Shown here one piece after another: positions 10,095 through 18,010 of a stretch of 64,000 bases of DNA. Each line of letters starts with the position of its first letter. Position 1 is the stretch's first letter. The stretch comes from an uncultured Blautia sp. (GTDB taxonomy: Bacteria; Bacillota; Clostridia; Lachnospirales; Lachnospiraceae): positions 3,339 to 67,338 of the forward strand of contig CAMOUV010000001.1 of the NCBI GenBank assembly GCA_946626695.1, read 5' to 3'. A program made the translations under genes and the position numbers. The notes under the pieces were generated by a model, which did no database searches, was not told the DNA's origin, and saw nothing but the letters and a program-made list of their open reading frames with translations.

Positions 10095-10499
10095 ATGGGA
10101 AATGCGAAGGATAAAGCCGGAAAGGTAGGTCTTGCGCTGGCGGGCGGCGTCTTTCATATCGCATTGTATGCGTGTGTTGCGGTGCTTTTGTTCTGGCTGG
10201 GCAAAACCGCTTACTACTTCGGCTACGATGTTTTCAACCAGCAGGCCATGAATCCCGGCGCCGGGCAGGAGGTCACGGTGGTGATCCAGGAAAACAGTAC
10301 GCCCTACAAGATCGGAAAGACCCTGGAGAGCAAGGGTCTGATCCGCAATGCCTATGTTTTTGTGGTACAGGAACGGCTTTCCAATTATCACGGAAAGCTG
10401 CAGCCGGGAACCTATCTGCTGAGCACGGCGTATACGCCGAACCGCATCATGGGAATCCTGGCGGGGGATAAAGAACAGGAAGGGGCCGCAAGCTCGTGA
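10095..10499 (+). CDS. Short MltG/YceG-like membrane protein (N-terminal part only)
   Basis: One TM helix, then IGKTLESKGLIRN and KLQPGTYLLS motifs; occupies the mltG (yrrL) position before the O-methyltransferase. Confidence 0.7.
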   Translation: MGNAKDKAGKVGLALAGGVFHIALYACVAVLLFWLGKTAYYFGYDVFNQQAMNPGAGQEVTVVIQENSTPYKIGKTLESKGLIRNAYVFVVQERLSNYHGKLQPGTYLLSTAYTPNRIMGILAGDKEQEGAASS

Positions 10500-12399: not shown

Positions 12400-15300
12400 T
12401 TGAAAAAGAGGATCGATGAGCTTTTGAATGGAGAATTTGAATATGAGCCGCCCGTTCTCATGTTTTCCCAGGAAAGCGTGGAGGTGGAGCTTCCGGCCGG
12501 CGAGACAGCCCAGAGAGAGCTGTATATCGGCACGGAACAGAACCGGAAGATCCGCGGGTATGTGACGTCCTCTGACCGGAGACTGGTGCCGGGACTGGAA
12601 ATCTTTTCCGGGACCACCATACGCCTTCCCTTCGGCATCGATGCGGTGGGCCTGCTTCCCGGCGAAGTCCGTGAGGAGTGGCTCTGCTTCACCACGAATG
12701 TGGGCGAGTATAAGATCCCGGTCACGATCCGTACCGGATCGGGGGTCCTGTCCACATCGGAGGGGGAGGTCCGCTCCCTCGATGATTTTGCGAAGATCGC
12801 GGAGGAGGATTTCCGGGAAGCTTATCGAATGTTCACGGATCCGGAGTTTGAGAGACTGTGCGAAAAGCAGTCCGACGGGAGGATCCGTTCCTTGTATGCC
12901 GGTCTGTCCGCGCAGCCGGTCACCTATCAGAACCTGGAGGAATTCCTGATCGCCGCCGGCCGGAAGGAGAAGGTCACGGTGCGACTCCAGGAATACCGGA
13001 GAGAAATTTTCGAGATCACCGAATCCACCCGGGAGTCGGTGCTCCTTACCCGCAGCGGCTGGGGCCATCTGCGGATGGATGTGGTGGTGGAAGGCGGCTT
13101 TATCGAGACGGAAAAGCGTGTGATCACCGATGAAGATTTTATCGGAAGCTCCTACAACCTGGCCTATGTGATCCGGCAGGAAAAGCTGGGAGAGGGCAAT
13201 CAGTACGGAGGGATCCGCATCATCACGCCCTATCAGGAGCTGTTCTTTGAGGTGGTCGCCTCCAGGACCATGCGCTCGGGGGTGCAGATCCATCTGGAGG
13301 AACAGAAATGCCGGCTGAATCTGATGCGGGATTATCTGGATTACCGCTGCCAGACGCTGGACTGTCCCGCCTGGGCGGCGCAGTCGCATTATGAACTGAA
13401 CCGGCTGAAGGATTCGGGCTTTGATTATCCGGAATACCGGATCTATGAGGTTTTTGTCCTCTGGAAGGAGGGCAAAAAGGAAGAGGCAGCGGATCTGCTG
13501 AGAGAGTTTCACAGCCAGTCCTTTATCCGTGACAACCCGGAGATCGCCGGACTGTATCTGTATCTCTGCTCCGAGGCCGGCCTGTACAAGGACAAGGATG
13601 CGGTCCTCCGCAGAATCCAGGCTTTGCGGGCCCGGAACGAAAAAAGCTTTGTCCTGCAGGAGATCCTGCTTCAGGTGGATCCGGAGCTGGTGCGGCTGCC
13701 CTCGAGGGCACTGTACGAGCTGGAGGAGCTTTTTGAGAGAGGCTGCCGGAACCCGGTCCTGTATCTGGAGGCCTGGGTGCGCATCTGCATGGATGAGAGC
13801 CTCCTGCACCGGCTCAGCCGTTTCTGGATCCAGGTATTTCTGTTCGCGGGACGGAAAGGGCTTCTGACCCAGGAGCTTACCAACCGTTTCACCTTCCTGT
13901 CCGGAAACGAAAAAGAATTCCGGGAGAGCCTGTACCGGGCGCTGGTGTACGGGTACGAGGCGTATCCCTCCGACGATTCGCTGGAGGCGATCTGCCAGTA
14001 TATCATGCGCGGAAACCCGCGGAAGAAGGAGTATTTCCGCTGGTTCGAGCTGGCCGTGGAGCGGGACATCCGTCTCACAAGGGTGTTTGAATATTATATG
14101 GAGACCCTGGACATTTCCTATCACCGGGAGCTGCCCAAGTCTCTTCTGATGTATTTCAACTACAACAACAGCAATCTGGGGGATACAAGAAAAGCCTACA
14201 TCTATGCGGATGTGATCGCGAACCGCGATCAGGATCCCCAGACCTACAAAAGCTATCAGGAGACCATCCGTTCCTTTGCCGCCCAGAAGATCCGGGAGGG
14301 CAGGGTCAGCGAGGATTATGCGCTCCTGTATCAGGAATATCTCCATTCACCGGAAAATCAGGAGGAGGCACGGATCCTTTCGGGCATCCTTTTCGTCAAT
14401 CGTCTGTACTGCGACAGCAAGAAGGTCCGCTGTGTGATCGTGCGGCACAGCCAGCTGGTGCGGGAAGAGCTGTATCCCTGTGTCCAGGGCGTTGCGTACC
14501 CGCGGATCTACACGTCGGACGCGGCTGTCCTGTTCCAGGACGACAAGCAGCGCCGTTACAGCGCCACGGTGGATTACAATCTGAAGAAACTGATGGACGA
14601 GCGGGATCTCATCCCGCAGATCCTTGAAAAACGATATACGGAGCCCGGGATCCTTCTGAATTACTGTGAGACCCGGGAGATCACCGAACAGAATCTGGCG
14701 GTTTTCCAGCAGGTGGTCCAGTCCGATTCCTTCACGCCGGAATACCAGAAAGAGATCCGCAGGAGGATCCTTTCCTGGTACCGGGAGAATGTGCGGGGCT
14801 CCGAGCTGGACGGACTTCTGAAAAAGCTGGACTATCGGGAATATGCCCTGGTGGACCGGAAGACGCTTCTGGAGATCCTGATCGAAAGGGGACTGTTCCG
14901 CCAGGCCTACAGGATCGTGGAGGAGTTCGGGGCAGAAGAGGTGAGCCGGCCGGATCTGCTGAAGCTGGTAAGCCGCATGATCATCCGGCGGGATATGCGG
15001 GAGGATGACGAGCTGATCGCGCTTTCTTCCCAGGTGTTCCGGAACGGACTTTATGACGAAATGATCCTCCGTTATCTGATGATGTACCGCAACGGTCCGG
15101 TGGATGAGCTGTTTGCCATCCGCAAAAGCGCCGAGGGCTTTGAACTGGACACCTATTCCTTTGACGAGAAGATCCTGCAGCTTCTGATGCTGACCCAGGA
15201 TTACCGGAAGGAAGGGGAAAAGGTCCTGGAAAGCTATGTCCGTGAGTCCGGCAGGGAGAAAATCATCGGGGCGTATCTGACCCAGCTTTCCTACGGCGCG

Positions 15301-15933
15301 TTCGTGAAGGAGCACGGGATCAGTCCCTTTGTGCGGAGCTGTCTGGAGACGGCCTTCCGGAACGAATGGGAAGTGGATCAGGTCTGCCATCTGGCGCTGT
15401 TCAAATCCCTGGTGCGGGAGAAGGACAGCCGGGGCGATTATAAAGAAATGAAAGAAAAGCTGCTCCGGGAGTGCATGGAAAAAGGAATGGTATTCGGCTT
15501 CTTCCGGAAGCTTCCCCAGGATATCCTGAGCCCCTGGCAGCTGGATGACAAAACCTTTGTGGAATGTCATGCCGGGCCCGATGCCTCGGTGACCCTGTTC
15601 TACCGGCTGGATTCGGGACTGGGGGATGACGGGAATTATGTGTCCCAGCCGCTTGCCCCGGTGTATCAGGGGATTTTTGTGAGAACCTTTACCTTGTTTT
15701 ACGGAGAAACGCTGCGGTATTATTTTGTCATCGAGGAAAACGGGAAGAGCCGTAAGACCTCGGAGCGCGTGCTTACCATGAACCGGGTGGAGGGGAATCC
15801 TTCCTCCCGTTATCAGCTGATCAATCAGCTGCTGTCCTCCCGGAAGCTGAAGAAGGACCGGGAGACGGCTGCGGGCCTGAAACAGTATCTCCGTCAGGAA
15901 CAGTATGTCAATGAAATGTTCAGACTGCAATAA
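12400..15933 (+). CDS. DUF5717-family large cytoplasmic protein (beta-rich N- and C-terminal domains, long helical core)
   Basis: 1177 aa ORF with native codon usage, TTG start after GGGG RBS. MKKRIDELLNGEFEY start and C-terminal FTLFYGETLRYY recalled as DUF5717. Confidence 0.7.
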   Translation: MKKRIDELLNGEFEYEPPVLMFSQESVEVELPAGETAQRELYIGTEQNRKIRGYVTSSDRRLVPGLEIFSGTTIRLPFGIDAVGLLPGEVREEWLCFTTNVGEYKIPVTIRTGSGVLSTSEGEVRSLDDFAKIAEEDFREAYRMFTDPEFERLCEKQSDGRIRSLYAGLSAQPVTYQNLEEFLIAAGRKEKVTVRLQEYRREIFEITESTRESVLLTRSGWGHLRMDVVVEGGFIETEKRVITDEDFIGSSYNLAYVIRQEKLGEGNQYGGIRIITPYQELFFEVVASRTMRSGVQIHLEEQKCRLNLMRDYLDYRCQTLDCPAWAAQSHYELNRLKDSGFDYPEYRIYEVFVLWKEGKKEEAADLLREFHSQSFIRDNPEIAGLYLYLCSEAGLYKDKDAVLRRIQALRARNEKSFVLQEILLQVDPELVRLPSRALYELEELFERGCRNPVLYLEAWVRICMDESLLHRLSRFWIQVFLFAGRKGLLTQELTNRFTFLSGNEKEFRESLYRALVYGYEAYPSDDSLEAICQYIMRGNPRKKEYFRWFELAVERDIRLTRVFEYYMETLDISYHRELPKSLLMYFNYNNSNLGDTRKAYIYADVIANRDQDPQTYKSYQETIRSFAAQKIREGRVSEDYALLYQEYLHSPENQEEARILSGILFVNRLYCDSKKVRCVIVRHSQLVREELYPCVQGVAYPRIYTSDAAVLFQDDKQRRYSATVDYNLKKLMDERDLIPQILEKRYTEPGILLNYCETREITEQNLAVFQQVVQSDSFTPEYQKEIRRRILSWYRENVRGSELDGLLKKLDYREYALVDRKTLLEILIERGLFRQAYRIVEEFGAEEVSRPDLLKLVSRMIIRRDMREDDELIALSSQVFRNGLYDEMILRYLMMYRNGPVDELFAIRKSAEGFELDTYSFDEKILQLLMLTQDYRKEGEKVLESYVRESGREKIIGAYLTQLSYGAFVKEHGISPFVRSCLETAFRNEWEVDQVCHLALFKSLVREKDSRGDYKEMKEKLLRECMEKGMVFGFFRKLPQDILSPWQLDDKTFVECHAGPDASVTLFYRLDSGLGDDGNYVSQPLAPVYQGIFVRTFTLFYGETLRYYFVIEENGKSRKTSERVLTMNRVEGNPSSRYQLINQLLSSRKLKKDRETAAGLKQYLRQEQYVNEMFRLQ

Positions 15934-15944
15934 GGAGCTATGGA

Positions 15945-17210
15945 ATGAATGAGATTCGGGATCTGATCATCGGAATCGATTTTGGAAAAGAAAATACACA
16001 GCTCTGCTACTATGACCGCAAGGCGGATGAGCCCCGCTCGATCTCCATGAAGGTGGGAGCCAATGTCTACGAAGCTCCAACGGCTTTATGCCGGAGAGCC
16101 GGGCAGGCCGAATACTCGGTGGGAATCGAGGCGGAATATTTTTCCCGGGAGAAAAACGGTTATCTGATCGAGAATCTCTACGAGATCACCGGGAAGGAGG
16201 AGCCGGTGCAGGTGCTGGAGGAATCCAGGGAGCCCTGGGAGCTGGCGGCTTCTTTTATCAAAGGCATGCTGCGGTATCTCGGGGTGATGGAAGTGATCCG
16301 GAACACCCGCTGCCTGTGCATCGCCACCCCGTCTCTCACGGATATCCGGGTGAAAAACCTGAAGCGTGCCTGCACATCCCTCGGGATCCCGGAGGACCGT
16401 TTTCTGCTGATGGATTACGGGGAAAGCTTCTTTTATTATGTGATGACGCAGAAAAAAGAGGTGGTGAACCGCAGTGTGGCCTGGTACATTTTTGACGGCA
16501 ATGAGGTCACCTTCCGGAAGCTTTCGGTCAACAACGCCAGAAAGCCCGTCCTGGTACAGCTTGAGGAGCCGGTAACGACGACGCTGCCGGAGACGGCCCG
16601 GGAAAGAGATTCGGCCTTCTGCACGTTTATCCAGGAAACGGTGGGGACGGAGCTGTTCTCCAGCATTCAGATCAGCGGGGAAGGCTTTGACACCGACTGG
16701 GCGAAACAGGCGGTAAAGCTTCTGTGTTTTCAGAAACGGAAGGTATATTATGGAAACAATCTTCATGCGGGAGGAGCCTGCGCGGCGGGAAAGGAACGCA
16801 TGGAGGACCGGAATCTTAAGAATATCCGCTTCTTGAGCCAGTCCATTGTCAGGGAAGACGTGGGGATGGAAATGCTGGTCATGGGGTCTCCGGCCTATGT
16901 GCCGCTGATCACCGGCGGAGAAAACTGGTATGAATGCAGCAGCCGCTGCGAGCTGATCCTCAATAAGACCGAAGACCTGGTGTTTGTGGTTCTGCGGATG
17001 GGCGAGACCGAGAAAAAGCGGGTCGTGATGCATCTTCCCGGACTGCCGGCAAGACCGGACAAGACGACCCGGCTTCTGCTGGAGCTGGCCTATGTTTCGC
17101 CGGACCGCTGCCGCATCACGGTGACGGATCTCGGCTTTGGCGATATGTTCCCCTCCAGCGGAAAGGTCTGGAAGGAGACAGTGAACTGGACAGAGGAGGG
17201 AGTATCATGA
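15945..17210 (+). CDS. DUF5716-family protein; divergent Hsp70/actin-like fold
   Basis: N-terminal IIGIDFG (cf. DnaK IIGIDLG); C-terminal LPGLPARPDKTTRL...VTDLGFG (cf. DnaK SBD-beta). Confidence 0.7.
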   Translation: MNEIRDLIIGIDFGKENTQLCYYDRKADEPRSISMKVGANVYEAPTALCRRAGQAEYSVGIEAEYFSREKNGYLIENLYEITGKEEPVQVLEESREPWELAASFIKGMLRYLGVMEVIRNTRCLCIATPSLTDIRVKNLKRACTSLGIPEDRFLLMDYGESFFYYVMTQKKEVVNRSVAWYIFDGNEVTFRKLSVNNARKPVLVQLEEPVTTTLPETARERDSAFCTFIQETVGTELFSSIQISGEGFDTDWAKQAVKLLCFQKRKVYYGNNLHAGGACAAGKERMEDRNLKNIRFLSQSIVREDVGMEMLVMGSPAYVPLITGGENWYECSSRCELILNKTEDLVFVVLRMGETEKKRVVMHLPGLPARPDKTTRLLLELAYVSPDRCRITVTDLGFGDMFPSSGKVWKETVNWTEEGVS

Positions 17211-18010
17211 CCGGATATATCCTTTGTCAGACAAAACGGACCGAAGTTCCCTTTTATCTGGAGAATATCAGCACCAACATCTACTCTCTGGAGGAGCTTT
17301 GCTATTTTCTGTACAACAATCTGTATCTTGTGGATGAGACTGTGATCCGGGAGGATCTGTGCCGCTGGATCGACACGGAGCTGCATCTGCCCGCCTTGGC
17401 GGCGAAGCTCCGGCCTCATCTGGGCAAGTTTGCGGATCTGCAGGATTTCCTGTATCCGATTTTCAAGGAGATCAATTACCTGACCTATGAGGAGCTGCGG
17501 AATCTGAACGGCCGCCTTGCCTCCCTGGAGGGGGAGACCCTCAGTGTGCGGAAGAAGCTGAAGGGGGATGCCCTGGTGCAGAACGGAATGTATGTCAATG
17601 CCATCCGTTCCTACCGGGAGATCCTTTCTTATGCGGAGTATCGTGTCGAACCGGAGCAGATGACCGAGGGAGAAAGAGAATTCGCATCGAAGGTCTGGCA
17701 TAATCTGGGCTGTGCCTATGCCCGCCTCTTTCAGATGGAAAAAGCGCTGGAATGCTTCTGGAAAAGCTTCGGGATCAGCGGAAAACGGGAGGAACTGAAA
17801 GTTTACCTGCTGGCCTTCCGGAGTGTGAGGACACCGCTGGAATATGAGAGCCGCCTGGCGGAGACCGGAGCGGATCAGGAAATGACGGCGGAGATCGAGC
17901 AGGAGCTGGATCGCTTTGCCCGTCTTCCGGAGACCCCGGTGTACGGGCGGAATATCGACAGTACCCTGGAACGGATCACCCGGGAATATCACAGGAGCAC
18001 AGGATCATAA
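17207..18010 (+). CDS. Conserved hypothetical protein with a TPR-like segment
   Basis: Overlaps the previous stop (ATGA). GDALVQNGMYVNAIRSY and KVWHNLGCAYARLFQMEKALECF are TPR-like helices. Confidence 0.75.
   Translation: MTGYILCQTKRTEVPFYLENISTNIYSLEELCYFLYNNLYLVDETVIREDLCRWIDTELHLPALAAKLRPHLGKFADLQDFLYPIFKEINYLTYEELRNLNGRLASLEGETLSVRKKLKGDALVQNGMYVNAIRSYREILSYAEYRVEPEQMTEGEREFASKVWHNLGCAYARLFQMEKALECFWKSFGISGKREELKVYLLAFRSVRTPLEYESRLAETGADQEMTAEIEQELDRFARLPETPVYGRNIDSTLERITREYHRSTGS

Follow-up and report, generated by a model that had tools for sequence, protein, structure and literature searches.

What is the cellular role of three tightly packed, co-directional genes in a 64,000-nucleotide (nt) stretch of DNA from an uncultured Blautia sp. 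(GenBank assembly GCA_946626695.1, contig CAMOUV010000001.1, positions 3,339 to 67,338 of the forward strand; hereafter the window)? According to the list of open reading frames (ORFs), the locus comprises gene A (12400-15933, + strand, TTG start), gene B (15945-17210, + strand) and gene C (17207-18010, + strand), encoding proteins of 1177, 421 and 267 amino acids (aa), respectively. The spacing between A and B is 11 nt, and the ORF coordinates and translations place an ATGA overlap of the B stop and the C start at 17207-17210 (+ strand), confirming the tight spacing noted in an earlier description of this DNA (the initial annotation). The overlap suggests translational coupling of B and C, and the gene spacing is consistent with co-transcription of A-B-C. 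Our analysis identified A-B-C as an ancient, vertically inherited operon of the Lachnospiraceae that is under strong purifying selection. Judged by its sequence, B is best described as a lid-less pseudo-Hsp70, a conclusion that follows from the loss of its ATPase motifs together with the missing lid.

The homology of B to Hsp70 is secure, because a structural match and a match of the family profile both lead to DnaK. In the AlphaFold2 (AF2) model, calculated with 30 orthologues (predicted local distance difference test (pLDDT) 89.8, predicted template modelling score (pTM) 0.85), a reduced nucleotide-binding domain (NBD, about aa 1-283) precedes the beta subdomain of a substrate-binding domain (SBD-beta, about aa 294-414). 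A Foldseek search returned DnaK NBD plus SBD-beta as the best PDB match (7kru_A, E 2.5e-19, TMq 0.62), with further fold matches to lid-truncated BiP, Hsp110 and Ssz1 of the ribosome-associated complex (6sr6). The B family profile reaches DnaK at E 6e-6 without recourse to structure, and the B paralogues of sister families give direct PF00012 matches; model and profile together thus reveal the architecture expected of the Hsp70 superfamily, i.e. an actin-like NBD of two lobes and, after it, an SBD built as a beta-sandwich. Pfam assigns residues 124-415 to PF18980 (DUF5716_C, E 4e-93), and the N-terminus, IIGIDFGKENTQ, resembles the Hsp70 phosphate-1 loop.

To compare the nucleotide-binding motifs, B was aligned with the DnaK of the same genome and with four Hsp70 paralogues of sister families, termed H1-H4. 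DnaK, H1, H3 and H4 share GIDxGTTNS at the phosphate-1 motif, where B reads GIDFGKENTQ; the IKR motif with the K70 equivalent is absent from B; the region of the catalytic Glu, EPxAAA in the four reference proteins, with the Glu171 equivalent, is DYGESFFYY in place of EPTAAA; phosphate-2, DxGGGTxD, is replaced by YIFDGNEV (for DLGGGTFD); and the adenosine motif GGS(T/S) by SGEGF. All five ATPase motifs are lost in B and in its orthologue H2, and the corresponding positions vary freely between genera. Elements that are kept in B include RRVFxGNNLYAKGAC at the end of the NBD, an SGEGF...W segment, and LPGLPxRPxKTTRL and DLGFGExYPSSGK in SBD-beta. In the model, the last strand of SBD-beta covers E408-414, and the 421-aa chain stops a few residues later, leaving no helical lid. 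Reading of the model's secondary structure further indicates that the NBD lacks about 100 residues relative to that of DnaK, with subdomain IIB reduced to about one helix. No conserved acidic, EEVD-like C-terminal tail was found in the B family alignment, and the operon encodes neither a J-domain protein nor a nucleotide exchange factor. B thus lacks the features of a working Hsp70 ATPase chaperone, namely the motifs, the lid and a dedicated J-protein or exchange factor. Of the Hsp70-like character ascribed to B initially, the descent is upheld by fold, profile and phylogenetic tree, but a working ATPase is not, since the motifs that sister paralogues keep are lost.

The origin of this protein became apparent from other families of the Lachnospirales. 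In an order-level sample, divergent DUF5717 homologues occur in 89 of 183 genomes of other families, mostly split into two proteins of about 395 and 900 aa (A_N and A_C), and in the model of A the split lies exactly where beta-sandwich 2 gives way to solenoid 1. The loci fetched from these families show a rigid order of eight genes: A_N; A_C; H1, an Hsp70 of about 559 aa; a protein of about 620 aa with a GrpE domain at its C-terminus; H2 (Hsp70 plus DUF5716_C, about 525 aa); H3 (Hsp70 plus DUF5716_C, about 545 aa); H4, an Hsp70-vWA fusion of about 692 aa; and a TPR protein of about 386 aa. The same cluster is present in named genomes, including Defluviitalea phaphyphila Alg1 and metagenome-assembled genomes (MAGs) of Defluviitaleaceae and 'Ca. 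Epulonipiscium'. H1, H3 and H4 are strongly conserved, whereas divergence is fast in A, H2 and the GrpE-like protein. In a maximum-likelihood tree, B and the H2 proteins of the nearest outgroup family form a clade with 100/100 support, and the branch that sets H2 and B apart from H1, H3, H4 and DnaK also has 100/100 support. On this phylogenetic basis, B is orthologous to H2, the one cluster paralogue predicted to be catalytically dead. C aligns end to end with the TPR protein of the cluster, save for about 115 residues of repeats that have been deleted from C.

The remaining cluster members are missing here. H1, H3, H4 and the GrpE-like protein were not found in this genome, which has one canonical Hsp70 only, and H3 orthologues were detected in 0 of 81 genomes of the same family at E<=1e-60, while all 6 control genomes from other families were positive. 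As read from these comparisons, A_N and A_C became one gene in the ancestor of the Lachnospiraceae, the TPR protein was shortened, and the three Hsp70s predicted to be ATPase-competent disappeared together with the GrpE-like factor. The missing motors imply that the operon is a remnant left after the ancestor had shed every component with predicted ATPase competence, so that the module is not self-contained but a reduced form of an eight-gene Hsp70/GrpE/vWA cluster. Because H2 appears to be dead already in the full cluster, the loss of motifs is old and gives no sign of decay. In the family nearest to the Lachnospiraceae, one genome (G552) carries the Hsp70-vWA gene as two overlapping ORFs of 198 and 494 aa (L065:412-2456) and a GrpE-like protein of just 279 aa; this may reflect either an intermediate step in the reduction or an error of assembly.

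Within the family, the operon is nearly universal. A, always in single copy, was found in 148 of the 151 sampled genera, as was B. In all 20 genera for which the locus was fetched, the three genes lie side by side in the same orientation; in the window, as in a syntenic relative (L131), the adjacent genes bear the respective Pfam signatures. The three genes are jointly absent from two 98%-complete genomes (G471 and G524), with C found in the positive controls. The genes are therefore kept together and lost together, and both co-conservation, the lack of which would have spoken against a common module, and the presumed vertical inheritance held up. Presence is nearly flat across the family, and trait profiling, which had been proposed as a test, was therefore uninformative. 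A phylum-wide sample contained A in 4 of 401 genomes, all of them of its own family, and a broader A profile run against a class-wide Clostridia sample gave, outside the order, only short marginal TPR-like matches and no real homologues.

B and C are also joined physically in some lineages. B reading frames of about 690-728 aa occur in seven genera, and in-frame B-C fusions were verified in three of them, with B spanning aa 4-426 and C about aa 431-666; B and C are thus fused in at least three genera and, judged by frame length, probably in seven. Examples of such natural fusions are L129:3576-5705 (- strand), L130:6246-8387 (+ strand) and L060:11551-13605 (+ strand). Fusion in several genera identifies B and C as partners. 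In the fused proteins, C begins at the position where the lid of a canonical Hsp70 would begin.

To estimate selection, we compared the window with L131, which shares its gene order from mtaB to SEC-C. The number of synonymous substitutions per site (dS) against a genome of the same genus was saturated, and the ratios of nonsynonymous to synonymous substitutions (dN/dS) were taken from closer relatives. The ratios were 0.09 for A, 0.13 for B (0.06 against a closer copy, L133) and 0.12 for C, compared with 0.10 for RNase J, 0.08 for U32 and 0.06 for purA and purB; as dS was 1.1-1.4, near saturation, these values are approximate. The GC content at third codon positions (GC3) of A, B and C is 0.69-0.74, indistinguishable from that of the RNase J, U32 and pur genes, in agreement with the native codon usage inferred initially.

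The scaffold protein A contains full-length PF18984 (DUF5717_N, E 7e-246) and PF18983 (DUF5717, E 8e-94). Its AF2 model, based on 51 sequences (pLDDT 87.2), shows beta-sandwich 1 (aa 1-125), a conserved five-helix insert (aa 127-185), beta-sandwich 2 (aa 193-289), a first TPR-like solenoid (aa 293-664), a small beta domain (aa 666-730), a second solenoid (aa 737-1046), a beta-sandwich on the C-terminal side (aa 1052-1126) and a C-terminal helical hairpin (aa 1137-1176). The layout predicted from the letters, with a beta-rich N-terminus, a helical core and a beta-rich C-terminus, is borne out by the model, except that the beta domain at 666-730 and the terminal hairpin had been overlooked. In Foldseek searches, the N-terminal tandem sandwiches resemble ASH/PapD-like Ig domains, with matches to ciliary central-pair proteins (E 2.6e-7), CEP192 SPD-2 and PDB 2qsv, and the solenoids resemble TPR/HAT-type scaffolds of complexes such as Ctr9, SKI3, Naa15 and IFT-A subunits. 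As far as the model can tell, these are generic scaffold folds that give no pointer to function. Neither A nor B matched PDB chains by sequence, NCBIfam has no family for either, and Pfam scans of the single beta modules of A returned only the DUF families. A purine-rich AAAGGGG lies 7 nt 5' of the TTG start of A, and the start position is identical in the L131 orthologue.

For C, Pfam reports one clear TPR (TPR_1, E 9e-8). The orthologue alignment delimits an N-terminal domain (aa 1-110) with the motif PY...IYS.EELCYY, and aligning C with the extended-cluster TPR proteins adds two to three TPR motifs (about aa 113-200) and a conserved C-terminal helix, W+xEYR. When a profile of the N-terminal domain was run over 1.84 billion representative proteins, 1720 matches were obtained; among the best 150, the domain was always N-terminal in a C-like protein or placed straight after B in a fusion, and on this showing it appears private to the system. 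A Pfam scan of the domain found nothing beyond a sub-threshold match of aa 60-106 (within 17207-17536) to PF24408, 'wHTH-Calcineurin_assc', a family known from conflict systems; the match scored 19 bits (E 0.001), where the cut-off is 27. The C profile as a whole matches generic TPRs, including those of the Hop, CHIP and Tom70 types among many others. The conserved residues K117, D121, Y136, A132 and A180 form, as far as can be read from the alignment, no obvious K/N/N/K/R carboxylate clamp. The analogy with TPR co-chaperones that had been drawn for C probably does not carry over, given that B has neither a lid nor an EEVD-like tail and that no clamp pattern was seen in C.

In part of the family the operon is followed by a fourth gene, D, encoding a protein of about 380-410 aa with an N-terminal coiled coil and two central transmembrane (TM) helices. 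In 9 of 20 Lachnospiraceae genera, D is the gene after C (directly downstream in L045-L055 and L064, e.g. L046:13704-14927 and L053:5060-6262), and some extended clusters likewise have a D homologue 3' of their TPR gene (L083, 1-1144; L084; L105; L126, 13397-14614). Pfam has no family for D, and a hidden Markov model (HMM) of D found no match in the present, 94%-complete genome. With D absent and purC as the next gene after C, the window represents the minimal three-gene form. A, B and C contain no membrane-spanning stretch (highest 19-residue Kyte-Doolittle mean, 1.27) and no signal-peptide-like N-terminus, as had been stated from the sequence; the cytoplasmic nature ascribed to the module cannot be generalized, because about half of the sampled genera add the two-TM protein D.

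The surrounding genes are co-directional with the operon. Upstream lie prmA, rsmE, a cysteine-desulfurase-like gene, thiI, mtaB, ruvX and rnj, followed by ylbF/ymcA, a short YceG-like ORF and, nearest to A, genes for an O-methyltransferase and a U32 peptidase, two enzymes known to act in tRNA hydroxylation and methylation. Downstream are purC, purB, purA, a HAD hydrolase and a SEC-C protein, with 97 nt separating C from purC; the placement between tRNA-hydroxylation and pur genes had thus been recognized correctly. The gap between U32 and A is 18 nt, which suggests that in this species transcription runs into A from the upstream genes. Scans for promoters and terminators at the operon gave no signal beyond chance. 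As a test for heat-shock control, we searched for the controlling inverted repeat of chaperone expression (CIRCE), which was absent from the window and present three times elsewhere in the genome.

Several observations concern the wider context. In two other loci, perfect CIRCE repeats, TTAGCACTC-N9-GAGTGCTAA, are found about 3.7 kb 5' of gene A (L048:4288 and L074:4341), where they are probably part of another heat-shock operon adjoining the cluster. The sole canonical Hsp70 gene of the Blautia genome, dnaK, opens the same contig just 5' of the window (G000 contig C1:1-1896) and precedes the operon by about 14 kb on the same strand; this linkage was not seen in the other sampled genera. The YceG-like ORF (window 10095-10499, 134 aa) aligns only to positions 1-66 of the 275-position YceG (MltG) profile, and because the same short form occurs in the syntenic L131, it is a conserved mini-protein rather than a fragment.

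Taken as a whole, the data are best explained if A, B and C form a stable complex that works without ATP, with B as a structural peptide clamp; we give this explanation about an even chance of being correct. In such a complex, A would provide a platform of Ig-like modules and TPR-like solenoids, and the SBD-beta of B would permanently hold a segment of a partner or client, as Ssz1 does in the yeast ribosome-associated complex. C would be positioned directly behind the SBD-beta, at the canonical lid position, linking B to the rest. The complex was probably the adaptor or substrate-holding core on which the lid-less Hsp70s of the ancestor worked; in the Lachnospiraceae, it would act passively or borrow the housekeeping DnaK. 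Several points weigh against this explanation. The physical association of A, B and C and their co-transcription are indirect deductions, the latter from spacing only, and the notions of a clamp and of a lid provided in trans derive from analogy and fusion topology. A lone B gene (L134:7547-8782, on the 164-kb contig G430:C1) adjoins neither A nor C; it is the only exception to A-B-C adjacency that we saw and comes from a small assembly that is 67% complete. The motif loss predicts, but does not prove, that B has lost ATPase activity, and certain atypical Hsp70s still bind nucleotide. Finally, the gene neighbourhoods are generic housekeeping ones, in which nothing indicates a client or a process.

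How probable are other explanations? If B were a working divergent Hsp70-type ATPase and C its TPR co-chaperone, the two could remodel or fold A or clients bound to A. Such an arrangement would be in line with the Hsp70 fold and intact SBD-beta of the B model, with the B-C fusions of some genera and with the similarity of the C profile to Hop, CHIP and Tom70-type TPRs among its many matches, as eukaryotic TPR proteins are known to partner Hsp70s. We nevertheless consider it distinctly improbable, because nucleotide and catalytic motifs are lost from B throughout the family while being kept in H1, H3 and H4, subdomain IIB amounts to about one helix, both a lid and a conserved acidic tail for a TPR clamp are missing, and the module contains no J-protein or exchange factor. 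The operon might instead encode a morphogenetic or assembly scaffold linked to the membrane or envelope and tethered by D where present, rather than a proteostasis adaptor. The recurrence of D after C in 9 of 20 genera, and after the TPR gene in some extended clusters, points in that direction, as do the ASH/PapD Ig-like modules and long solenoids of A, which are typical of structural assemblies; we regard this possibility as doubtful, given that A-B-C persist without D in this genome and in about half of the genera and that no envelope genes are consistently near the operon.

A role in anti-phage defence or biological conflict, akin to the Hsp70-GrpE themes of GAP1-N2 GTPase neighbourhoods, is very unlikely. 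A similar Hsp70/GrpE neighbourhood theme has been described (PMC7159879), and the sub-threshold wHTH match in the N-terminal domain of C would fit a conflict system, but no GTPase or effector gene accompanies the operon, PADLOC matched neither the three operon proteins nor any of three extended-cluster proteins, and the near-universal, single-copy, syntenic and vertical distribution, with native composition and housekeeping context, is unlike that of patchy, mobile defence islands. The notion of a functionless, decaying relic of the eight-gene cluster can be considered scarcely credible: although the operon has lost five of the eight ancestral functions, and the Hsp70 it keeps is, from its motifs, predicted to be catalytically dead, all three genes have a dN/dS of about 0.1, intact frames are maintained in 148 of 151 genera, and the motif loss in H2 is older than the reduction of the cluster. 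A further possibility would be that A-B-C is the client-selecting core of an undescribed, J-protein-independent Hsp70 machine specific to the Lachnospirales, where the giant Ig/solenoid scaffold and a dead Hsp70 'decoy' would position substrates for several lid-less Hsp70 motors, the Lachnospiraceae core having been rewired onto DnaK or become ATP-independent; we put this forward as a tentative idea that is, on present evidence, unlikely.

Lachnospiraceae are among the most abundant bacteria of the human and animal gut, and nearly every genus devotes about 5.6 kb to this operon. The purifying selection acting on it matches that on RNase J or the pur genes in strength, yet the operon has been linked to no function, phenotype or publication. 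One can view the locus as a natural experiment in chaperone evolution, in which a multi-Hsp70 machine was stripped of all its motors and the scaffold, the dead Hsp70 and the TPR partner remained indispensable. Its role, once worked out, would show how pseudo-enzymes of the bacterial Hsp70 family act, and could reveal a core, lineage-specific process of the Lachnospirales.

A literature search on DUF5716 and DUF5717 retrieved no study, the single full-text match being irrelevant, and searches on Hsp70-like proteins in Lachnospiraceae and on atypical prokaryotic Hsp70 neighbourhoods uncovered no work on this system. The Pfam entries DUF5717_N, DUF5717 and DUF5716_C, to which A and B belong as full-length members, are catalogue names without an assigned function or paper. 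Comparison with characterized systems is therefore by likeness of parts. With DnaK-DnaJ-GrpE, B shares the fold of NBD and SBD-beta and detectable sequence homology, but B lacks the ATPase motifs and the lid and has a reduced IIB, and the module lacks a J-protein, an exchange factor and a nearby CIRCE. Ssz1 retains nucleotide binding, unlike what is predicted for B. It resembles B as a lid-less Hsp70 homologue acting as a structural subunit with a helical partner (a role predicted for B), and its structure 6sr6 is among the fold matches of B; the relation is one of analogy rather than orthology, with no sign here of ribosome association or of a J-domain partner. The title of PDB entry 6sr6 refers to a pseudo-substrate in the SBD of Ssz1, which is bound stably to Zuotin. 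Firmicute and actinobacterial neighbourhoods described by Kaur, Burroughs, Iyer and Aravind (2020; PMC7159879) contain, besides Hsp70 and GrpE, a protein with FNIII repeats joined to TPR or DnaJ, together with a second gene for an Hsp70 domain without a peptide-binding domain. This GAP1-N2 theme is similar in combining, in Firmicutes, Hsp70, GrpE, a truncated second Hsp70 and a beta-sandwich-TPR protein, and differs in that the operon has no GTPase or effectors and is vertical and near-universal rather than patchy. Compared with the eight-gene cluster of the sister families, the window has A as a single gene, contains no counterpart of Hsp70-1, Hsp70-3, the Hsp70-vWA fusion or the GrpE-like factor, and encodes a C protein shorter by about 115 aa of TPR, but A, B and C are orthologous to A_N plus A_C, H2 and the TPR gene and stand in the same relative order.

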